From the IMG/VR virus record IMGVR_UViG_2531839481_000001, positions 1 to 8,874 of that record: a stretch of DNA of 8,874 bases; one strand, 5' to 3'. The stretch is from a virus (lineage: Monodnaviria > Loebvirae > Hofneiviricota > Faserviricetes > Tubulavirales > Inoviridae). Below are positions 1 to 8,874 of this stretch, piece after piece. Under the pieces are notes generated by a model. It was not told where the DNA came from and searched no databases. It saw nothing but the letters and a program-made list of their open reading frames with translations. Each line of letters starts with the position of its first letter. Within the stretch, counting starts at the first letter, position 1. The translations under genes and the position numbers were made by a program.

Positions 1-2
1 TT

Positions 3-34
3 GGTGCGCATAATGTCAACGCGTTATGTTGAAA
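3..34 (+). other. dif-like Xer recombination site (attL/attP1): exact dif XerC arm GGTGCGCATAA (3-13) + TGT, then 7 divergent bp and a degenerate XerD-like arm TTATGTTGAAA (24-34)
   Basis: E. coli dif is GGTGCGCATAA-TGTATA-TTATGTTAAAT (established). Window 3-16 matches the XerC arm plus the first 3 bp of the central region, then diverges where hybrid att sites of dif-integrating phages typically begin. Confidence 0.7.
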
Positions 35-68
35 AGGCCGCTGCGAAAATCGAATCCCGCAGCGGCCT
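35..68 (-). terminator. Perfect 11-bp stem hairpin (AGGCCGCTGCG / CGCAGCGGCCT, 12-nt loop); candidate rho-independent terminator for the - strand cargo gene and tip of the forked attP hairpin
   Basis: Arms 35-45 and 58-68 are exact reverse complements. On the - strand the stem is followed by TTTTC, and it lies just downstream of the stop of the CDS at 101-1030. Confidence 0.55.
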
Positions 69-70
69 CT

Positions 71-97
71 TTAGCATAACGTCATTGTGCGAACCAA
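71..97 (-). other. Inverted degenerate dif-like site (attP2-like): on - strand TTGGTTCGCACAA-TGACG-TTATGCTAA
   Basis: Reverse complement of 71-97 aligns with site 1: XerC-arm-like GGTTCGCACAA (85-95) is 9/11 to GGTGCGCATAA, XerD-arm-like TTATGCTAA (71-79). Positions 1-13 can pair with 85-97 at 11/13, forming an imperfect stem. Confidence 0.6.
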
Positions 98-100
98 TAG

Positions 101-1030
101 CTACTTTTTCGTATAACTCTCTTCGCATTTAGCCAAAAACAGCAGATTAGTAGCGGTTAAATGAAGGGTATAACTCGCTAAATACTCAGGAACTTTTGTT
201 ATTTCTGCCCCTTGTCCATGTCCACCTTCTTTATTTCGAATGGTTGGAATACCACTCTCAAGTAGAATTCTTATTGAAGAAAATTGATTCTGGAGGTATT
301 CAGGTACTAAATTATTTGCCAAACAACTGTTAATTAATTTTTTAGCTGTGTCAGTATCATTAAATTGCCAAGAATGTTTTTTATGTATGGCTTTCATTAG
401 ACTTTCAAAAGATTTGAGGCAATCATTTAAACATTCTTTATATCGCTGATGTCTATAATGCTCATGGGCGGATAAAAACTCATCGTTTGCTCCGTTATAA
501 CTCTTGTTCTTACCAAGAATCTGAAGCGTAGGCTTTACAACATCAGAATGAATGAATTGTGAGTCAACTTTAACCAACTCTCCTGACTCAAATTGATATC
601 CAAGACCTGCTTCTTTAAACCTGATATTAAGTTCTTCAATAGCATCATCAGGACTTTGCTTTACTGACCCTCTGAATTTCCACTCATTTGATCTTATATA
701 CCCGTCTATCAGTTTGAAACATATCTCAATGATATCCAAGCATTTTTCATGATCTCTCTCAGCTAGGAAATAGTCAAAAATTGCCCCGAAATTCGATTCA
801 GGATACTGTTTGAGAGAGAATACACCATATTCCTTACACAGCGTTTTATGAACGAGTCTGTAAAGCTTACTTGCTTCCGTTTCATAGTCACTATCTTCAC
901 CGATAGTATCTCTTACAATATGAACAACCTGAACACGAAATGCATTTGGTATATTCGTGTATTGGTAAACATCAGCTACTTCACCTCTTAATTTTTTTTG
1001 TCTTTTTGAAAATAATTCGAATATAGCCAA
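101..1030 (-). CDS. HEPN-like (Rx5H motif) abortive-infection-family candidate, AbiJ/Abi_C-like; phage cargo (moron) protein
   Basis: 309-aa ORF with no in-frame ATG until about residue 213; start is TTG at 1028-1030 preceded by GAGGA with 7-nt spacing. C-terminal RNKEGGHG fits the HEPN Rx4-6H signature. Markedly AT-rich compared with the phage backbone genes. Family assignment is from motif recognition only. Confidence 0.5.
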   Translation of the reverse strand: MAIFELFSKRQKKLRGEVADVYQYTNIPNAFRVQVVHIVRDTIGEDSDYETEASKLYRLVHKTLCKEYGVFSLKQYPESNFGAIFDYFLAERDHEKCLDIIEICFKLIDGYIRSNEWKFRGSVKQSPDDAIEELNIRFKEAGLGYQFESGELVKVDSQFIHSDVVKPTLQILGKNKSYNGANDEFLSAHEHYRHQRYKECLNDCLKSFESLMKAIHKKHSWQFNDTDTAKKLINSCLANNLVPEYLQNQFSSIRILLESGIPTIRNKEGGHGQGAEITKVPEYLASYTLHLTATNLLFLAKCEESYTKK

Positions 1031-1536: not shown

Positions 1537-1569
1537 CCTTTTGATCCTTTGTTGCTGTTCAAAATCCGC

Positions 1570-1607
1570 ACAATAAAGAACGTGCAGTGTAGGTAATACT
1601 GCACGTT
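1570..1607 (-). terminator. Rho-independent terminator candidate downstream of the repressor gene (10-bp perfect stem AACGTGCAGT / ACTGCACGTT, 9-nt loop, T-rich tail on - strand)
   Basis: Arms 1579-1588 and 1598-1607 are exact reverse complements; on the - strand the stem is followed by TTCTTTATTGT (1570-1578 complement). Confidence 0.55.
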
Positions 1608-1625
1608 AGTCTCATTCCTGAGACT
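1608..1625. other. Second short hairpin (7-bp stem AGTCTCA / TGAGACT, loop TTCC) immediately adjacent to the terminator
   Basis: Exact reverse-complement arms at 1608-1614 and 1619-1625. Confidence 0.4.
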
Positions 1626-1635
1626 GCTAAACCCT

Positions 1636-2082
1636 TTAATCTTCGCCTGACACTACTTTTTTCATAAACATTTTCGTACTGTAAGTATATGAACTTAATG
1701 CAGAAACTTGCCTTGCGAGAGCCAGAATATCTTGTTTATCCAGTGTTCTGATGTTCCACACAATGAAATTGTGGGCGTTAGTGGTTTCTTCATCAGTGTA
1801 ACCGTCTGCGGAAGTGATTAACTTCCTTTCAGTAGCTTCTTCTTTAACATCAATAGCATAGCCATAAGCAAGGGTGTTCAAGTCTGCACCAGTAATTTTA
1901 GCTATCTGAATTATGTCACTGAATTTAGGTTCAGTTTTGCCGGACGCTATTCTGACCAGTGTGCTAACGCTAATACCGGTTTTTTCGGCCAGTTCTTCAT
2001 AAGTCGAGTGTTCCAGAATTACCTTTTTGATACGTTCTGCTCTCTGCTTGTCCGCCATATCTTCATGCTCATTGTTGCCCAT
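1636..2082 (-). CDS. XRE/Cro-C1-type helix-turn-helix transcriptional regulator; candidate phage repressor divergent from gII
   Basis: 148-aa ORF with a classic HTH segment (EELAEKTGISVSTLVRIASGKTEPKFSDIIQIAKITG); ATG at 2080-2082 with GGAG 8 nt upstream; divergent orientation to the replication gene as in CTX-phi rstR/rstA. Confidence 0.8.
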   Translation of the reverse strand: MGNNEHEDMADKQRAERIKKVILEHSTYEELAEKTGISVSTLVRIASGKTEPKFSDIIQIAKITGADLNTLAYGYAIDVKEEATERKLITSADGYTDEETTNAHNFIVWNIRTLDKQDILALARQVSALSSYTYSTKMFMKKVVSGED

Positions 2083-2127
2083 CTACTTGGCTCCATCTTA
2101 ACAGTGGTTTTTCAATAGTTAGATTTG

Positions 2128-2184
2128 ATGCTCATTTCTGACAATTTAAACATTGCAAATGTATTGACTGTCAGAACTGAGCAT
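2128..2184. promoter_or_regulatory. 57-bp imperfect palindrome centred at 2156 between divergent repressor and gII; candidate operator and/or plus-strand origin hairpin
   Basis: Outer arms ATGCTCATTTCTGACA (2128-2143) and TGTCAGAACTGAGCAT (2169-2184) are reverse complements at 15/16; nested inner palindrome ACATT-gca-AATGT (2150-2162) shares the same centre. Confidence 0.55.
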
Positions 2185-2192
2185 ATTACATT
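2164..2192 (+). promoter_or_regulatory. Candidate sigma70 promoter for gII: -35 TTGACT (2164-2169), 17-bp spacer, -10 TACATT (2187-2192)
   Basis: 5/6 match at -35 and 4/6 at -10 with optimal spacing, about 60 bp upstream of the gII start; -35 overlaps the right arm of the palindrome. Confidence 0.4.
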
Positions 2193-2253
2193 GTGACCAT
2201 TCAATTTGCTCATAAATGACTATTGACACATATTTTGATGGGTGTGGCTACTT

Positions 2254-3306
2254 ATGATCGACTGGTTTACTGGAATCCTGCCTTGCACGCACCAACCGTT
2301 ACCGGCTGGTAGTGTCGTCAGCGTTGATGCTGATGGTGCAGTGGAGTGGGAAACAGTAAAACGGTTGACTGTTCGCGGTTCGTACGAATCTACAATGAAA
2401 GTAAGATCAGTTGGATCCGATGGCGAAGGCCGGGCAACACATCTTTATATTGATGGTAATCCGTCAAAATTTCTTCAGGGACATTCGGTTATTGGTTCCG
2501 ACGATTTGCAAGGACTGGTATTGACAGCTTACGCGAGAATACTGGCATTACTTCATATTCCCCATGACCTTCCGTCCTATCGTCAGGTAATGACAGGGCA
2601 ATATAAGGTTTCCCGTGTTGATATTAATTACATGTATTCATTGTCAACATTGGAAAATGTGCGGGCATGGCTTTATGCCGCAGAGTTTAAAGCAAAAACT
2701 CGTCATGGTCGCGCCTGTGGCAAAGGGGGAACGGTCTATTTGGGAAAAAACTCCCGTCGTTGGAGCCTGAAATTTTACTCTAAATATGATGAGCATACAT
2801 CTGGAAAAAAAGGGCACCAGATAGCAGATGAATTTGTTAACGCTGGTTTACTGGATTGGTCAAAAGATAAATTACGTATTGAATTAACATTAAGAACAAC
2901 TGAATTAATTGATTTGAATCTTACGCTTGGTAAAAACTGGAATATTGAGACGCCTAATAAAGTATTCTCTGACTATGTAGGGAGAATAGAAATGAATCAA
3001 AACACTATATTAACTGATGAAAAGATAATTAATCTCCCAAGAAAAATACAGTCTACATATTTGTTATGGAAGCAGGGCGCAAATATGAAAGAAATGCTTC
3101 CAAAGCCAACATTTTACAGGCATCGTAAAGAATTACTGTCTTTTGGTATAGATATTAATTTTTATTGTGAAGCCCCTGATTCAAATAATGTTATTCCATT
3201 AGTAAGAACACTTGAGGCTAAACCAGCCAAAATTCCATCATGGGTTTATGAGAAAGGTTTAATTTTCGATTATAACCGTATTTCACATGCCAGTAGCTGG
3301 CATTAA
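2254..3306 (+). CDS. gII: Replication initiation protein pII (rolling-circle nickase, Ff gene II family)
   Basis: Recalled M13 pII begins MID, as here (MIDWF) at ATG 2254. Shared motifs include PSKFLQGHSVIGSDDL (M13 PAKVLQGHNVFGTTDL) and NVIPLVR (M13 NVVPLVR). The ORF track extends to an upstream GTG at 2242, so the start is ambiguous by 12 nt. Confidence 0.85.
   Translation: MIDWFTGILPCTHQPLPAGSVVSVDADGAVEWETVKRLTVRGSYESTMKVRSVGSDGEGRATHLYIDGNPSKFLQGHSVIGSDDLQGLVLTAYARILALLHIPHDLPSYRQVMTGQYKVSRVDINYMYSLSTLENVRAWLYAAEFKAKTRHGRACGKGGTVYLGKNSRRWSLKFYSKYDEHTSGKKGHQIADEFVNAGLLDWSKDKLRIELTLRTTELIDLNLTLGKNWNIETPNKVFSDYVGRIEMNQNTILTDEKIINLPRKIQSTYLLWKQGANMKEMLPKPTFYRHRKELLSFGIDINFYCEAPDSNNVIPLVRTLEAKPAKIPSWVYEKGLIFDYNRISHASSWH
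2992..3306 (+). CDS. gX: pX, in-frame internal restart within gII (C-terminal 104 aa)
   Basis: In-frame ATG at 2992 gives a product starting MNQNTILTDEK, positionally and sequence-wise like M13 pX (MNIYDD...), with the same C-terminus as pII. Confidence 0.6.
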   Translation: MNQNTILTDEKIINLPRKIQSTYLLWKQGANMKEMLPKPTFYRHRKELLSFGIDINFYCEAPDSNNVIPLVRTLEAKPAKIPSWVYEKGLIFDYNRISHASSWH

Positions 3307-3317
3307 AGGAGAGTGAT

Positions 3318-3635
3318 ATGTCTAATTATGGTCTTTTCGTAAAAGGTAAGATGCTTGGTGCTCGTCAGCGTAATAAAATTAATGGGCAAGGTTATTATAA
3401 TGAAATTGGTATTGGCTTAGAGATCCCTGATGGCTTTGGTGGCACCAAGCAAGACCAGATCATTATCCGTGTATCACAAGCTCTGGTGAATTCCGGCGTA
3501 ATGAATCAGGCTAATAGCTTTATCGGAAAGTTAGTTCAGATCCCCGTTTATGTTCGTGTATGGTCAATGGAAGGTAGGGAAGGGGTAACTTATAACATTT
3601 CATCTGACGGTGGAATCACTGAAATAAAAGTTTAA
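3318..3635 (+). CDS. Gene-V-position protein, putative ssDNA-binding protein (function by synteny only)
   Basis: 105-aa ORF with strong RBS AGGAG (3307-3311) before ATG 3318, located between gII and gVII exactly where Ff gene V sits. The sequence does not obviously resemble recalled M13 pV. Confidence 0.5.
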   Translation: MSNYGLFVKGKMLGARQRNKINGQGYYNEIGIGLEIPDGFGGTKQDQIIIRVSQALVNSGVMNQANSFIGKLVQIPVYVRVWSMEGREGVTYNISSDGGITEIKV

Positions 3636-3637
3636 AT

Positions 3638-3724
3638 ATGGTTGATGTTATACAAATATTAATAGCGTCAGGCATTGTTATCTCATTTGGCCTCGGCGCA
3701 ATTACAGCGGGAGTTTTCCGTTAA
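3638..3724 (+). CDS. gVII: Minor coat protein pVII
   Basis: 28-aa hydrophobic peptide MVDVIQILIASGIVISFGLGAITAGVFR, comparable to recalled M13 pVII (…ALGIIAGGQR); start 3 nt after the gene-V stop; not in the ORF track because it is short. Confidence 0.7.
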   Translation: MVDVIQILIASGIVISFGLGAITAGVFR

Positions 3725-3819
3725 TGTATATAGCTTATTTCTTCGGGGCTTATACCTTTGGTTTTGCCCTTTTCTACGCGGTCGGTTCATTTAAATCATT
3801 TTCTGACCGCTTAATGTAA
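3724..3819 (+). CDS. gIX: Minor coat protein pIX
   Basis: 31-aa hydrophobic peptide MYIAYFFGAYTFGFALFYAVGSFKSFSDRLM; ATG overlaps the gVII stop (TAATG coupling), as in Ff. Confidence 0.65.
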   Translation: MYIAYFFGAYTFGFALFYAVGSFKSFSDRLM

Positions 3820-3838: not shown

Positions 3839-4081
3839 ATGAAAGTTTTGTCTTTTGTTAAATCTAAAATTGCAGTAGCTTCAACAGCGCTTTTTGTTTC
3901 TGCGAGTTCTTTTGCGGCAGATGGGGCTACAGGCGGTACTGATTATGCAGGTCAGGCAATGGATGCATTACTGACTCAGGCAAATGATCTTATTGGTAAA
4001 GTATGGCCTGTCGTTGTTGCTGTGGTTGGTGCAGGCCTTGCCATTCGTATTTTTAAAAAATTCGCTTCCAAAGCAGTTTAA
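3839..4081 (+). CDS. gVIII: Major coat protein pVIII precursor
   Basis: 80-aa ORF with signal peptide ending SFA, acidic N-terminus, hydrophobic core and basic C-terminus [11 protein letters not shown]; the mature region resembles the recalled IKe-type coat (…WPVV…KKF.SKAV); GGAG RBS at 3827-3830. Confidence 0.9.
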
Positions 4082-4090
4082 AATTCACTT

Positions 4091-4114
4091 AGGGGCATTC
4101 GCTGCCCCTTTATT
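4091..4114 (+). terminator. Rho-independent terminator after gVIII (7-bp stem AGGGGCA / TGCCCCT, loop TTCGC, then TTTATT)
   Basis: Exact reverse-complement arms 4091-4097 and 4103-4109 followed by a T-rich tract; same position as the gene VIII terminator in Ff phages. Confidence 0.7.
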
Positions 4115-4127
4115 AAAGCGGGTTATT

Positions 4128-5372
4128 ATGAAAAGGAAAATATTAATTATTTCCTCTATTCTTATTTCTTCTTTTTCATATGCTGATTCATGGGAAAGCA
4201 TTACTAAATCTACTTTTCAAAGCTCTGCATATGCTGAAAGTAAGCAAATAACCAACCAAGATGGCACTAAACAAACTGTTTATTATATTGATGCAGCGAT
4301 GCAGGCTTCTGCCTGTCAGGGGGCTAAAGACAGTGCTCAGGGTGTTTTTACTCAGGTTAAACCAACTTATGAGGGAGTATGGCCTAACTCTGAATTCCGT
4401 CTTGTGTTTTCTGACGCTTGTACTTACAGCGACTCTCCAGGCCAGAAAGATAAATACTGGACTTTAACCGCTTATATTATTGGTGATATTCAACGATCCA
4501 TTCCTGATGAAAAACCTTCCGAGCCTACGCCTGAAGAGATTTGTGAAGCTAAACCCCCCGAAGAAGGTGTATTCAATAATGTCTATTCTTATGACGGCGA
4601 TCGTTATATTTATTATAACGGTTGTGAATATGAGGCCACTGGCGTCATTGTTTGCCAGAGTGATGGCACTGTTTGTGCTGCGACATGGAAGCCTACCGGA
4701 ACTGTAGCCGACCCTTCAGATAAGCCTTCTTCTCCTGCTGGCGATGGCGGTGATACTGGAGGCGGGGATACGGGTGGTGGTGATACTGGAGGAGGTGATA
4801 CAGGCGGTGGTAACCCAAGTGGCGGTTCTGGCGGTGGTAATGGCTCAAGTATTACCAAAGGAGATATTCAGTCAGCTATCGAAGGTGCTTCACCTAAAAT
4901 TGCCAGTGAGATTCATGATAAGTTAACAGAAAAAGACACCTCATCTGATGATAAAAAGTCGGCTGATGAACAGGCTAAAAATAATTTAAATCGTCTTGGT
5001 GACTCTATAAATAACCTTACTCGCGGAGCCGGACGTTTTGCTGATCCTTCTGGAGGTGATTCTCGTTATGGGAAGGGGGATTCTGAGTTAGATAGCGCTT
5101 CCACTTTAGCTGAATCTGAATTAGGAATTGCAAAGGATTCTCATGGCGCGTTATGGGAGGCTTTTTTAAATAAAGGTGCTATGTTGCCCAATTTACCCAA
5201 TGGTAATGGTTGTTCTGATTTTATCATTTTTGCAGGGGAGGTTTACCAGATTGACATTGGTTGCGATAAATTATTAACCATTAAAAATGCGCTTTCTTGG
5301 GTTTTTTATTGTTTAACATTCTGGTATGTCTTTACGTCTTTAACTTCATTGCTTCGTAAAGGGGGGGAATAA
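4128..5372 (+). CDS. gIII: Adsorption/minor coat protein pIII
   Basis: Start at ATG 4128 gives a signal peptide [19 protein letters not shown]; Gly-rich linker; the C-terminal membrane anchor (…[22 protein letters not shown]…[17 protein letters not shown]) resembles the recalled M13 pIII C-terminus. The ORF-track start at 3984 is an upstream in-frame extension through gVIII and the terminator. Confidence 0.85.
4752..4811 (+). repeat. 4 x 15-bp imperfect tandem repeat encoding (DTGGG)x4 in the pIII inter-domain linker
   Basis: Units gatactggaggcggg, gatacgggtggtggt, gatactggaggaggt, gatacaggcggtggt in the gIII frame. Confidence 0.8.
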
Positions 5373-5713
5373 TGCCTTTATTATTAGGTATCCCAGCATT
5401 GTTACGTTTTCTTATCGGTCTTGTCCCTTTATTTATTGGTTATATGGCGAGTTTTTTAGCCCGTCTTGCGACCAAAACAGGTTTAATAGCGGTTGCATTG
5501 ATCGCTTTAATTACAACAACTGTTACGCTTTTAATGCAATATCTTGCAGGGGTCATGTATAACGGTTTACCTGCTGATTTTTCACATTTAATGTCCTCTG
5601 TATTACCTGACCATTTTCAAGCCTGTATTAACGTTATTATGGTTACTCGCATCAGTGTTTTTGTTTTCGATTTAAAGAAAAAATTCCTTGATTATGCAAA
5701 CAGGGTGATTTAA
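5372..5713 (+). CDS. gVI: Minor coat protein pVI
   Basis: 113-aa hydrophobic protein beginning [14 protein letters not shown] (recalled M13 pVI begins MPVLLGIPLLLRFL); ATG overlaps the gIII stop (TAATG). Confidence 0.9.
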   Translation: MPLLLGIPALLRFLIGLVPLFIGYMASFLARLATKTGLIAVALIALITTTVTLLMQYLAGVMYNGLPADFSHLMSSVLPDHFQACINVIMVTRISVFVFDLKKKFLDYANRVI

Positions 5714-6808
5714 ATGGCTGTTCATGTAGTAACAGGTAAATTAGGCTCAGGTAAGACATTGGTTAGTGTTTCCAAAATACAGGAAAGACTTGCTAAGGGT
5801 TGTCCTGTTGCCACTAACCTAGACCTTAAATTGCATAATATGCCAATGGTAGGACGTTATGCGAAAAAAACGCGCGTTATTCGCGTTCCTGACAAGCCTT
5901 CATTAAATGATTTACTGGCTATTGGTATTGGAAATACATCTTACGATGAATCCCGCAATGGCCTTCTCGTGCTTGATGAATGTGGTACTTGGTTTAATTC
6001 CCGTTCATGGGGCGATAAAGACAGACAGCCGGTTATTGACTGGTTTTTACATGCCCGTAAATTAGGCTGGGATATTATATTTTTGATTCAGGATATTTCT
6101 ATTATGGATAAGCAAGCGCGTCTGGCGCTTGCTGAACATGTTGTGTATTGTCGCCGCTCTGATAAATTAAACATCCCTTTTATTGGCTCCATTATAAATT
6201 TAGTTTCAGGGGCGCGATTTTCCTTGCCAAAGGTACACTTTGGTATTGTTAAATATGGTGATAATGTTAATTCAATCACTGTTGATAAATGGATATATAC
6301 CGGTAAATCTCTTTACTCTGCTTACAATACCAAACAAACTTTCACAGATAACTATCCTCACGGCGCATTTTCGATTTTGCCACCATTTATCACACACGGT
6401 CAGTTTTCTGTTCACAGAGGGATTAATTATTATATGCGTCTCACTAAAATTTATTTTCGCAAATCGAACCGTCTTATATTAATGCTTTCTTTTCTGGCGC
6501 TGGGGCTTGGACTTGGTTTCTGGTTACAATCTGGTAAGAGTGCTGATGAACTCTCGGCTGTTAAATCTGCTCATGCTGAACAGGTGAGGGCGGCAATACC
6601 TGATAGTGCCGGCGATTTACCAAGACTCTCTATTAACTCTTTCTCTCAGCTTGGTTTTGATGTTTCCGTTACGTTTGTTGATGCTAAGGGTATGAAATAC
6701 CAGTATTTTGATTTAATTAAAGATGGTTATTCCGTTGATATTAAAGATGCCTGCCGAATTGTTATCAGAAAAGGCCGTTATTTACAAAACGTCACCTGCC
6801 AGGAGTAA
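5714..6808 (+). CDS. gI: Assembly ATPase pI (Zot-like, Walker A GKLGSGKT)
   Basis: 364-aa ORF with extended near-identity blocks to recalled M13 pI (…VTGKLGSGKTLVSV…LLVLDECGTWFN…QPIIDWFLHARKLGWDIIFL…); starts immediately after the gVI stop. Confidence 0.95.
   Translation: MAVHVVTGKLGSGKTLVSVSKIQERLAKGCPVATNLDLKLHNMPMVGRYAKKTRVIRVPDKPSLNDLLAIGIGNTSYDESRNGLLVLDECGTWFNSRSWGDKDRQPVIDWFLHARKLGWDIIFLIQDISIMDKQARLALAEHVVYCRRSDKLNIPFIGSIINLVSGARFSLPKVHFGIVKYGDNVNSITVDKWIYTGKSLYSAYNTKQTFTDNYPHGAFSILPPFITHGQFSVHRGINYYMRLTKIYFRKSNRLILMLSFLALGLGLGFWLQSGKSADELSAVKSAHAEQVRAAIPDSAGDLPRLSINSFSQLGFDVSVTFVDAKGMKYQYFDLIKDGYSVDIKDACRIVIRKGRYLQNVTCQE
6434..6808 (+). CDS. gXI: pXI, in-frame internal restart within gI
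   Basis: In-frame ATG at 6434 gives MRLTKIYFRKSNRL…, matching the position and sequence of recalled M13 pXI (MKLTKIYLKKFSRV…), with a TM segment following. Confidence 0.6.
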   Translation: MRLTKIYFRKSNRLILMLSFLALGLGLGFWLQSGKSADELSAVKSAHAEQVRAAIPDSAGDLPRLSINSFSQLGFDVSVTFVDAKGMKYQYFDLIKDGYSVDIKDACRIVIRKGRYLQNVTCQE

Positions 6809-6815
6809 TATTGTT

Positions 6816-8081
6816 ATGCGTTTATTTTTCATTGCTATCTTATTCACTTATTCTTTTTGCGTTTCTGCTGAGACTGTTAATCTTAATAATTCATCCGTTC
6901 GCTCATTTGTCCAGTGGTATTCATCAAAAACTGGCAAGCCCGTTATTGTTAACCCTGATGTTAAAGGAGCCGTAACGGTATTTAATGCTGATGTTAATCC
7001 CACAAATATTGATAATTTCTTTAAATCTGTACTGAATGCTAACGGATTTGTCATGCTTTCCGGCAATCCTGCGGTAGTCTCTTTGCCGTCAAAATTACCA
7101 TCACAGATGGCGTCAGACCTTGATGATGCTGATATTCGGCCTTATGACTCTTTCCCGTCTGAGCCATCTTATCAGTCAGCGCCAGTGGTGTTTACTGTCA
7201 GAAATTTTAAGCTGACAAAAGTAAGATCGTCTGATGTTCAACAACTGGTTAAAATTTATCTGGATTCTAATGGCGGTGGTAATGTTGTGGATTATCCAGG
7301 CAATAACTCCCTGATTGTTTCCGCACCTGACGAGCTGCTTCCCGTCCTTTCCGATTTCATCAATTCAGTGGATGTTGCCCGCGATCAGGTTTTGATTCAG
7401 TCGCTGATGTTTGAAACCAGTCTGTCGGATGGTGTTGATTTGTCGTTTGCAGCCGGTTCTGCATCCGGGCATAAAGTAGCAGGGGGTTTTAATACTTCAG
7501 CGTTGGGTAGCGCGTTGTCGACTGCAGGCGGCTCTTTTGGCATTTTTGATGGTAATGTTCTGGCCGTATCCCTGCGTGCGGTGCAGAGTAACTCCCGGTC
7601 TAAGGTGATTTCAACGCCTCGGATTCTTACTCAGTCTGGTCAGACAGGCTATATTTCTGTTGGTAAAAATGTACCCTTTATCACGGGTAAAGTTACGGGT
7701 GAATCTGCCGGGGTAAATAATCCGTTTCAGACCATTGAGCGTCATGATGTTGGCGTATCTCTGAAGGTGACGCCTGTTGTTATGGGGAACGGCCAGCTTG
7801 TACTTACTATTGATACCCGCGCTGATTCCATCAGCAACGATGATCAGGCATCTGATATTATTACGAACCAACGTCAGATACAGACTACAGTTCAGATTAA
7901 GGATGGCCAGACGCTCTTACTCGGTGGGCTGATTGATTCATCATCCAGCAATGCTGACCGTTCTGTACCGTTTATCAGTAAAATTCCGGTGATTGGCTGG
8001 CTTTTCAGGAGTAAAGCTGACAGTAATGAGCAACGTATTATGTATGTCCTGCTGACCGCTCATATTATTCGCGCGCTTTGA
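6816..8081 (+). CDS. gIV: Outer-membrane secretin pIV
   Basis: Start at ATG 6816 (AGGAG at 6801-6805) gives a signal peptide MRLFFIAILFTYSFCVSA. Strong similarity to recalled M13 pIV (…SVGKNVPFITGKVTGESAGVNNPFQTIER… versus M13 …SVGQNVPFITGRVTGESANVNNPFQTIER…). The ORF-track start at 6723 is an in-frame extension overlapping gI. Confidence 0.95.
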   Translation: MRLFFIAILFTYSFCVSAETVNLNNSSVRSFVQWYSSKTGKPVIVNPDVKGAVTVFNADVNPTNIDNFFKSVLNANGFVMLSGNPAVVSLPSKLPSQMASDLDDADIRPYDSFPSEPSYQSAPVVFTVRNFKLTKVRSSDVQQLVKIYLDSNGGGNVVDYPGNNSLIVSAPDELLPVLSDFINSVDVARDQVLIQSLMFETSLSDGVDLSFAAGSASGHKVAGGFNTSALGSALSTAGGSFGIFDGNVLAVSLRAVQSNSRSKVISTPRILTQSGQTGYISVGKNVPFITGKVTGESAGVNNPFQTIERHDVGVSLKVTPVVMGNGQLVLTIDTRADSISNDDQASDIITNQRQIQTTVQIKDGQTLLLGGLIDSSSSNADRSVPFISKIPVIGWLFRSKADSNEQRIMYVLLTAHIIRAL

Positions 8082-8082
8082 T

Positions 8083-8120
8083 GGGGCCGTGGCGGGTGCG
8101 TTAAGCCCCGGTACGGCCCC
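8083..8120 (+). other. GC-rich extended stem-loop immediately after the gIV stop; candidate gene-IV terminator / packaging-signal-type hairpin of the intergenic region
   Basis: GGGGCCGT (8083-8090) pairs with ACGGCCCC (8113-8120); inner CGGG/CCCG adds a further 4 bp; no U-tract follows, so classification as a pure intrinsic terminator is uncertain. Confidence 0.45.
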
Positions 8121-8230
8121 AGCAAGAGCCGGATTTTACGTCTCACCACGGAGCCTCTATATGGCCTTAAAACTGACAGGATATGAACAGAAAGACATCT
8201 TCTAGGTGATTCAATTACTTAGAGGTTTTT

Positions 8231-8479
8231 ATGTCTGTAAAAAGCAGGGTACGCGACCGCCTTCCCAGTGGTCATCTGAAGTCTTATCGACGTGTTGGTT
8301 CACACTTTACCAGTTGTTCCAGATGGTTTGATAAATCGCCGTCCTGGTATCGTAATATGATGTTGACCCGACCGGAACGCCGTGAAGTCAGAAAGCTTCT
8401 TAATCAGGTCTTGCATGGTCGTGATGCTGACGGTATAGCATTTCCTGTCAGTAACAAGCCGTTTGCATGGTGGTGGTGA
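8231..8479 (+). CDS. Hypothetical small basic Arg/Trp-rich protein (82 aa), unknown function
   Basis: ATG at 8231 preceded by AGAGG with 5-nt spacing; no similarity to Ff proteins that I recognise; lies in the region that is non-coding intergenic DNA in Ff phages. Confidence 0.35.
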   Translation: MSVKSRVRDRLPSGHLKSYRRVGSHFTSCSRWFDKSPSWYRNMMLTRPERREVRKLLNQVLHGRDADGIAFPVSNKPFAWWW

Positions 8480-8858
8480 ACTTTTTAGCCGCTAAAATTT
8501 AATACTTACGAAGTTATCGTAAACGCCGGTCAGTGACAAAACTCGTTTTGTTGCTGTCCGGGGTTGGCCAAGCCGTACAGTTTTCATTTTGAGTGTTATG
8601 GCTGATTCGGCGCGGCAGTGTTCATCTTGTCTGGAATTGGTGTCTTTAGCGCTGGGGAAGTTTTCATGTATCAGGTACAGATTTACCAACTGCAACTGGA
8701 TGAACAGGCCTGATTGGTGAGGTCAGGCCGTTCACTTACTGCTGACAGGCATTTGATTCTGATTCGTTTGGAGAAACGGATAATTTTGAATCATTGTCGA
8801 TAGTAACCAGTTGACGGCCAGTGTCAACGATTCCAGCCAGATTCCTTCTGATCCCATA

Positions 8859-8874
8859 TTGGTGCGCATAATGT
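8859..8874 (+). other. Second copy of the dif XerC arm (TTGGTGCGCATAATGT), truncated by the window edge; attR / chromosomal dif candidate
   Basis: Identical to positions 1-16; contains GGTGCGCATAA + TGT of E. coli dif. Confidence 0.7.

Follow-up and report, generated by a model that had tools for sequence, protein, structure and literature searches.

Half-dif repeats delimit a probable integrase-less filamentous prophage at the E. coli dif site

What does a 16-nt direct repeat at both ends of an inovirus record mean? The window, that is the whole stretch of 8,874 nt analysed here, begins and ends with TTGGTGCGCATAATGT, and the original prediction was that the two copies are the attL and attR of a prophage inserted at dif. 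A motif search of the whole window found the repeat as predicted, with exact matches on the + strand at 1-16 and 8859-8874. The chance of an exact 16-mer at two pre-specified positions is ~4^-16. When up to three mismatches were allowed, the mean number of matches after shuffling was 0.14, and three or more matches were reached in 0 of 200 dinucleotide-preserving shuffles. A third copy, absent from the original prediction as was the hairpin to which it belongs, is inverted and degenerate; it is located at 82-97 on the minus strand, reads TTGGTTCGCACAATGA and has three mismatches. This inverted copy is the key to the mechanism. We interpret the window as one complete attL-to-attR unit of an integrase-less filamentous phage lysogenised at E. 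coli dif, and assign this interpretation a probability of roughly 0.88.

The genomic surroundings of the phage were obtained from contigs found by an exact-protein look-up of the 82-aa ORF at 8231-8479, followed by BLAST. In the assembly collection, 133 blocks contain exactly this protein. Exact-pattern scans for the right junction gave no match in IMG/VR or in the GTDB species-representative genomes. Positions 1771-10644 of a 501-kb contig (L008, assembly GCA_026377335.1) are 100.000 % identical to the whole window (8874/8874), and the flanks of the prophage in this contig match E. coli chromosomes at 100 %. The unit in a metagenome scaffold (L005) is also 100 % identical to the window, and L003, L004 and L007 each differ from it by one mismatch. 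Both L008 and L003 contain the prophage as a single copy. The attL core is preceded in these two contigs by the hipA-side chromosome, where hipB-hipA are followed by ...cttggtttatg leading into position 1. At the right junction the repeat runs on as ATATTATGTTAAAT to give GGTGCGCATAATGTATATTATGTTAAAT, the full E. coli dif. In the source contigs generally, attR either continues in this way into an intact dif or enters the next tandem copy. The contigs with the identical sequence end in ...GGTGCGCATAATGT followed directly by ATATTATGTTAAAT; so does a 98.8 % relative in the complete genome of E. coli A20, again with an intact dif. The host primer published for the UPΦ integration check, GTGTGTGGATGTGAATGGTG (IntCheck_FW; PMC7307601), has an exact site in the right flank of L003-L008.

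The unoccupied site was searched for with a 616-nt query composed of 300 nt of left flank, one repeat copy and 300 nt of right flank. Many complete E. coli chromosomes, those of PSUO2 and M-17 among them, match it over 616/616 positions without a break. The host is therefore E. coli, and the event was a precise insertion at dif. The attL/attR assignment was thus borne out by the contigs with identical sequence together with the empty site in E. coli genomes, and the suggestion that the right copy may continue into an intact chromosomal dif proved correct, as ATATTATGTTAAAT follows the identical 8874 nt.

Other states of the same element were also observed. Two head-to-tail copies with a period of 8858 nt are present in L004, L005/L007 and L006; the junction between the copies reads ...cccataTTGGTGCGCATAATGTcaacgcg..., and only the last copy adjoins dif. 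At the ends of a unit, ...CTTGGTTTATG before position 1 with ATATTATGTTAAAT after 8874 would mark a single copy, and CAACGCGTTATGTTG after 8874 would mark a tandem. A 91 % relative in the complete genome of SCPM-O-B-12142 is also arranged in tandem and adjoins hipBA. The episomal form of a related phage was found in Salmonella as a 7,938-bp circular record annotated as a plasmid (L045). The circle holds one copy of ATTGGTGCGCATAATGT, within the same hairpin as in the window and with phage right-end sequence before it. Since the motif occurs once in the circle, one of the two prophage copies comes from the phage and the second from dif. The tandem array and the circular form had originally been listed as alternatives to a prophage; both states are real, but they belong to the same element and do not compete with the prophage reading.

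Two loci deserve a separate remark. The tandem dimer in L006 (2846-18427) lacks the same 1075 nt in both copies (window 4899-5973), which take in gene VI together with 3' sequence of gene III and 5' sequence of gene I. Because the loss is the same in both copies, a defective phage was duplicated, or re-integrated, as a unit. A 25-kb contig in a 'Candidatus Nanosynbacter' MAG (L013, JARKOR010000214.1) carries an enterobacterial inovirus 84-95 % identical to the window with an E. coli-type attL, and its placement in that MAG is almost certainly a binning error.

The exact limits of the repeat were read in contigs with the identical 8874 bases. Chromosomal ...tttatG lies before the left copy and Caacgcg after it; phage ...cccatA lies before the right copy and Atattatg after it. 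As the flanking bases of the two copies differ (G vs A before, C vs A after), the maximal repeat measures exactly 16 nt. The attL core has the same sequence as the XerC side of E. coli dif; the identity covers exactly TT, the 11-nt arm and TGT, and the next base diverges. That the identity stops after TGT had been stated from the window, which itself stops there and so cannot show it; the contigs with the identical 8874 bases bear it out. It is established from Xer biochemistry that XerC cuts between the 11-nt XerC arm and TGT. Xer exchange, which had been placed at about the end of the identity, is therefore near that point, but the exact spot has to be moved, as XerC cleavage lies 3 nt earlier, between arm and TGT. 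The TGT common to both sites serves as the short homology through which the swapped strand can pair again (PMC4246890).

The gene content is in line with a phage that relies on the recombinases of its host. A Pfam scan assigned the ten large ORFs to inovirus genes, an HTH repressor, an AbiJ-like protein and a 140-aa protein without match (Table 1). No integrase, recombinase or transposase was found among these ten ORFs in the scan, and no recombinase is listed in the RefSeq annotation of relatives. As judged from its genes, the window is a complete integrase-less inovirus, with the full inovirus gene set on the + strand. The strand packaged by filamentous phages is the sense strand of these genes. 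Because the inovirus genes lie on the + strand, the + strand of the window is the viral strand. The repressor sits in the position of RstR in CTXφ and of YPO2273 in YpfΦ, by positional analogy (PMC4266046). The product of the leftward gene beside attL has relatives that NCBI names STM4504/CBY_0614 family and gives a weak PADLOC match to PDC-S32 (5e-10); the gene looks like an abortive-infection (AbiJ-like) gene. In gene III, 15-nt tandem repeats at 4745-4819 encode Gly-rich linker repeats of approximately GGDTG, analogous to the variable 'GGGES' repeats of UPΦ g3p but different in sequence (PMC7307601).

Table 1. Features of the window, with amino acid identities to the UPΦ901-type (L009, L045) and YpfΦ-type (L012, L029) phages.
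Feature	Position	Strand	Description	UPΦ901-type	YpfΦ-type
attL core	1-16	+	TT, 11-nt XerC-binding arm (3-13, GGTGCGCATAA), TGT (14-16)		
Folded attP(+)	1-97	+	Forked hairpin on the viral strand; two inverted dif-like sites paired		
attP1	3-34	+	GGTGCGCATAA-TGTCAACGCG-TTATGTTGAAA: XerC arm, 10-nt centre, XerD-like arm		
attP1 extended 'central region'	14-23	+	TGTCAACGCG, 10 nt		
attP1 XerD-like arm	24-34	+	TTATGTTGAAA, 2 mismatches to dif arm TTATGTTAAAT; pairs with 70-79		
Apical GC-rich stem-loop	36-67	+	GGCCGCTGCG, 12-nt loop, CGCAGCGGCC		
attP2, inverted dif-like site	69-95	-	3' arm of the hairpin		
Cargo gene beside attL, 309 aa	101-1030	-	AbiJ_NTD4 and DUF7014 (Pfam E 9e-27, 1e-77)		
Conserved protein, 140 aa	1114-1536	-	No Pfam match; 98 % aa identity to UM146 prophage homologue		
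HTH (Cro/CI-type) repressor, 148 aa	1636-2082	-	HTH_3 1.5e-9	no match	97 % (Y. pestis L012)
Gene II, rolling-circle replication initiator, 350 aa	2254-3306	+	Phage_CRI 1.5e-73, G2P_X_C	86 %	96 %
Gene V, ssDNA-binding protein	3318-3635	+	Putative_G5P 1.6e-51	92-93 %	96-97 %
Small virion-tip genes VII (3638-3724) and IX (3724-3819)	3638-3819	+	Gene calls in L003, L004; PF19978 Inovirus_G7P_2		
Gene VIII, major coat protein	3839-4081	+	Phage_coatGP8 7e-19	90-91 %	no match
Gene III, attachment protein, 414 aa	4128-5372	+	G3P_pilus-bind 2.5e-24	85 %	no match
Minor coat protein in gene VI position	5372-5713	+	DUF5455	93 %	no match
Gene I, Zot-type assembly ATPase	5714-6808	+	Zot 3.2e-40; 75.8 % nt identity to I2-2 gene I	94 %	no match
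Gene IV, secretin, 421 aa	6816-8081	+	Secretin 4e-45	92 %	26 %
attR-side accessory ORF, 82 aa	8231-8479	+		absent	80-83 %
attR	8859-8874	+	Phage-derived XerC arm and TGT at the right end		

The inverted third copy of the repeat belongs to a hairpin. Folded as DNA, positions 1-97 of the + strand reach -32.4 kcal/mol (z = -8.9), and none of 200 shuffles was as stable. Read on the minus strand, attP2 consists of GGTTCGCACAA (95-85, XerC-like), TGACG (84-80, the 5-nt centre) and TTATGCTAAAG (79-69, XerD-like). In the fold, the XerC arm pairs with the XerC arm and the XerD-like arm with the XerD-like arm; TCAAC (16-20) is bulged and the TG of TGT is paired. The centres of attP1 and attP2 are 10 nt and 5 nt, as compared with 6 nt in dif, and the attP1 centre is 10-11 nt in 19/19 aligned variants.

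A pattern scan for the form of the site returned seven loci in species-representative genomes (Yersinia pestis, Lelliottia, Phytobacter, Rosenbergiella, Erwinia, Kluyvera and one mis-binned MAG) and 28 IMG/VR contigs. Of 35 unique variants, 34 gave the same fold; their sources include E. coli, Y. pestis, Lelliottia, Kluyvera, Erwinia, Phytobacter and Rosenbergiella. In the alignment of 19 distinct variants, 98.2 % of cells pair, as opposed to 29-50 % when the partners are slid by 1-3 columns. Compensatory double changes occur in three pairs, a number reached by 0 of 500 shuffles, and two of the three lie in the apical stem (alignment columns 37/64 and 44/57). The covariation signal is real but small, because the search pattern fixed the 5' arm and 24 of the 35 pairs are invariant. 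The sole hypervariable stretch of the hairpin is the central region just after TGT (alignment columns 15-20 in the 19 variants).

The hairpin is found beyond the close relatives of the window. Twelve inovirus contigs without other blastn-detectable similarity to the window carry the ~95-nt hairpin at 84-99 % identity, and the apical stem is conserved although it is free of the constraint of dif mimicry. The hairpin on unrelated contigs suggests that the attP module is exchanged between backbones, or that the stem has an extra function. A second role of the apical stem (36-67) in terminating transcription of the leftward genes is unsupported: a consensus scan for intrinsic terminators did not flag the stem, whose 12-nt loop falls outside the criteria of the scan.

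The anatomy of the window fits the CTXφ paradigm point for point (PMC4246890). CTXφ of Vibrio cholerae represents the CTX-type IMEX (integrative mobile element exploiting Xer), whose members include YpfΦ and CUS-1Φ (PMC4246890). Like CTXφ, the window phage has no integrase and has two inverted dif-like sites; these fold in the (+) ssDNA into a functional attP in CTXφ and, by analogy, would do so here. The attP1 centre is over-long and the attP2 centre short in both, with 12 and 5-7 bp in CTXφ and 10 and 5 nt in the window (PMC4246890). Further features common to both are a dif identity confined to the XerC arm and neighbouring bases, regeneration of an intact dif on one side, the occurrence of tandem arrays and leftward transcription of a repressor in the RstR position (PMC4246890). 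The window phage differs in its Enterobacteriaceae host, in having no detectable nucleotide similarity to CTXφ and in the spacing between its sites, which is 34 nt (35-68, with the 32-nt apical stem-loop at 36-67) as compared with ~90 bp. It has its own secretin gene IV, unlike CTXφ, and an AbiJ-like gene as cargo where CTXφ carries cholera toxin.

In CTXφ, neither of the attP sites is usable as a duplex; the ssDNA folds, the junction is resolved by replication and integration is irreversible (PMC4246890). The exchanged strand is stabilised by a few identical bases beside the XerC arm, the XerD side is without homology, and virions are produced from tandem prophages by rolling-circle replication (PMC4246890). 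The 8858-nt genome of the window phage has one copy of TTGGTGCGCATAATGT, which mimics the XerC half of dif and the first 3 nt of its centre. By analogy with CTXφ, attP1 (3-34) would pair with the inverted attP2 (69-95) in positions 1-97 of the packaged (+) strand, giving a double-stranded dif-like site whose centre is an asymmetric bubble. Host XerC and XerD would bind the folded site and dif, and XerC would cut after the XerC arm, between 13 and 14 of the window and at the equivalent position of dif. XerC would then swap one pair of strands, and the shared TGT would permit re-pairing of the exchanged strands. No second exchange is expected, because the XerD side has no homology, and replication would turn the pseudo-Holliday junction into a prophage. 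After integration each prophage end has one copy of the motif; the left copy leads into the remainder of attP1, which is predicted to be non-functional, and the right copy with chromosomal ATA-TTATGTTAAAT rebuilds a working dif. By the same analogy, duplex attP1 and attP2 are probably both non-functional. Integration would be effectively irreversible, because duplex attP1 with its 10-nt centre and attP2 with its 5-nt centre would both be improper Xer substrates. New virions would arise by gene-II rolling-circle replication across tandem copies; gene II of the window is intact. Catalysis by XerC only, resolution by replication and irreversibility are carried over from CTXφ in this scheme, and the ssDNA/XerC route is a proposal for YpfΦ too. 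The viral strand of the window carries the dif top strand, XerC arm then TGT, which is the strand that XerC cuts. This agreement is a non-trivial consistency check on the sequence, as single-strand exchange from ssDNA requires it.

The junction sequences alone would look alike if duplex attP1 had recombined with dif, and a route of the VGJφ type has to be weighed. A duplex replicative form would then recombine with dif via attP1 alone by XerC exchange, the hairpin and attP2 would be irrelevant, and excision would be possible. If crossing-over took place within the 16 bp shared by duplex attP1 and dif, the same attL, attR and tandem junctions would be expected, and circular duplex forms of relatives exist, as in the Salmonella record. 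IMEX of the VGJφ and TLC types likewise lack an integrase and depend on XerCD and dif, but they use a single duplex attP with a centre of normal length and integrate reversibly, whereas the window has two inverted sites with abnormal centres (PMC4246890). The attP of VGJ-type phages is a single 29-bp site with a near-normal centre, in contrast to the two inverted sites of the CTX type (PMC4246890), and the duplex attP1 centre of the window (10 nt) and of all 19 aligned variants (10-11 nt) exceeds the 6 nt of dif. Moreover, attP2 is conserved and co-varies with attP1, which is unexplained if attP1 alone matters. We consider the duplex route improbable, and the folding of the viral strand as in CTXφ is the preferred mechanism.

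A different question is which copy of the phage the window represents. It could be one unit of a tandem array, with the right repeat being an inter-copy junction (duplex attP1, an 'imperfect dif') instead of the attR-dif junction. The dimers of the identical sequence and the tandem relative in SCPM-O-B-12142 point this way, as do the arrays typical of YpfΦ and UPΦ (PMC4266046, PMC7307601). The single copy was the commonest arrangement among the 24 contigs read (L003 stands for 17 places and L008 for one), though short-read assemblies can collapse tandems. A unit from an array is a rather unlikely but serious reading, and it would concern only a different copy of the same element with the same mechanism. 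A technical origin of the repeat, by linearisation of a circular phage contig with 16-nt terminal redundancy or by assembler overlap, might be entertained, as the window circularised to 8858 nt gives the real attP junction of tandem arrays and relatives exist as small circles. However, 16 nt is not known as a usual overlap length of common assemblers. The repeat stops exactly at the points where dif and attP diverge, and in the identical sequence both copies lie inside chromosomal contigs of 220-586 kb. These two observations exclude the assembler overlap that had been named as a possible refutation, and an artefact of any kind is hardly credible.

The relationship to known dif-integrating phages depends on the part of the genome compared. 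The attP hairpin of YpfΦ of Yersinia pestis and CUS-1 of E. coli O18:K1:H7 is ~94 % identical to that of the window and differs mainly in the bulge. These phages share with the window the integration at dif with an intact 3' dif, tandem copies and variable ORFs adjacent to attL (PMC4266046), with a different attL-side cargo. YpfΦ has inverted XerC/XerD sites like those of CTXφ, rebuilds an intact dif at its 3' end and occurs in arrays of 2-4 copies separated by an imperfect dif; its ORFs next to attL vary (PMC4266046). In a comparison of the window with the Y. pestis phage (L012), matches of 79-94 % nt were confined to the hairpin, the module of repressor, gII and gV, and the right end. Genes VIII to IV gave no blastn match to the YpfΦ type. 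The ~99 % nt identity over the ~7.1-kb shared core that characterises the YpfΦ/CUS-1 lineage (PMC4266046) was not found in the window, and membership in this lineage was rejected because the structural genes are unrelated.

The structural genes lead instead to UPΦ (UPΦ901; Lineavirus-like, Enterobacterales), which integrates at dif beside the same host flank. UPΦ is recognised by the Lineavirus-like core genes I-VI and VIII and by >75 % nt identity to UPΦ901 over more than 1 kb. With L009 and L045 as proxies for UPΦ901, the window agrees with both: the core genes are present, and L009, the UM146 prophage, is 84-86 % identical to the window (84 % nt over 5.8 kb in the comparison of the two). 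It is of the UPΦ901 type because it has an exact site for the UPΦ901 phage primer IntCheck_RV, CTGGCAGAACGAACGATTAC (PMC7307601), a site that the window lacks. An assignment of the UM146 prophage to CUS-1 was rejected, as this primer site is present and its gene II shares no more than 80 % identity with that of the Y. pestis phage. Over 83-90 % of its length, the structural module of the window has ~67 % nt identity to IKe and I2-2. The two right-end ORFs of L009 are, from their position, probably h1 and h2 of UPΦ; tblastn of these ORFs against positions 8000-8874 of the window gave no match better than E = 1.0. The window further differs from UPΦ901 in length (8858 nt vs 7560 nt), in its YpfΦ-type repressor and in genes II and V, which are closer to YpfΦ. 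The YpfΦ-like parts extend over 1556-3641 and 8160-8874, and the UPΦ/Lineavirus-like part over 3839-8081. From the module-wise identities in Table 1, the window is a recombinant that combines UPΦ-type morphogenesis, YpfΦ-type immunity, replication and right end, and a cargo of its own.

The leftward gene slot next to the attP hairpin is hypervariable among otherwise similar phages. It holds the AbiJ_NTD4 and DUF7014 gene in the window (101-1030, minus strand) and in Kluyvera (L016), a TIR-domain protein in E. coli A20 (L002 2047-2910), a DpnII/MboI-nuclease-like gene in L024 and a Doc-family toxin in the Salmonella circle (L045 2138-2872). Several Pfam-less proteins also occur in the slot, some with hydrophobic, membrane-like stretches as read from their sequences. 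By these contents, the slot looks like a hotspot for defence and addiction cargo at dif. In E. coli A20, the attL hairpin and TIR cargo (L002 1438-3000) are linked to a backbone that has 98-99 % identity to the window from 1089 onward, and gene III is interrupted by the IS21-family element ISEc62. The arrangement of this locus indicates that a near-identical phage exchanged its cargo and was later inactivated by the IS element.

Homologues of the cargo are also found on plasmids. A homologue of the AbiJ-like gene with 85 % nt identity is located on a conjugative Klebsiella aerogenes IncFII plasmid (NZ_CP139388.1; L046 2490-3550), beside a decayed distal part of the hairpin from which the XerC arm and TGT are missing. 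'STM4504/CBY_0614 family' homologues were among the plasmid matches listed (H61, H64), and many of the 447 plasmid records, of which 397 are conjugative, may be due to such homologues. Most plasmid matches are cargo-gene homologues or small circular phage forms and do not speak for a plasmid origin of the window. The backbones that carry the hairpin and slot include the YpfΦ type, the UPΦ type and several without other nucleotide similarity. We tentatively propose that the ~95-nt folded attP and the adjoining slot may be a portable lysogeny-plus-cargo cassette that moves between unrelated Enterobacterales inovirus backbones, a reading to which we give somewhat less than even odds.

Half-dif repeats at the ends of Xer-exploiting prophages are already known from CTXφ, YpfΦ/CUS-1, UPΦ and Vibrio inoviruses. 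The repeats of UPΦ match about the first 15 nt of dif in a paper that gives no hairpin description (PMC7307601), and Vibrio inoviruses have a 17-bp one-armed attP (PMC12715192). The window is thus a clean and textbook-like case of a filamentous prophage that exploits Xer in E. coli, and it changes little in this picture. Its 16-nt repeat and 97-nt hairpin give the prophage exact borders, which automatic tools often miss. The modules for morphogenesis, replication and immunity, and cargo recombine freely among the dif-integrating enterobacterial inoviruses. Portable-cassette ideas of a similar kind have already been published for Vibrio. If the cassette reading is true for the Enterobacterales as well, the chromosomal dif would be a fast-exchanging hotspot for anti-phage and addiction genes, and the window would be a fresh recombinant.
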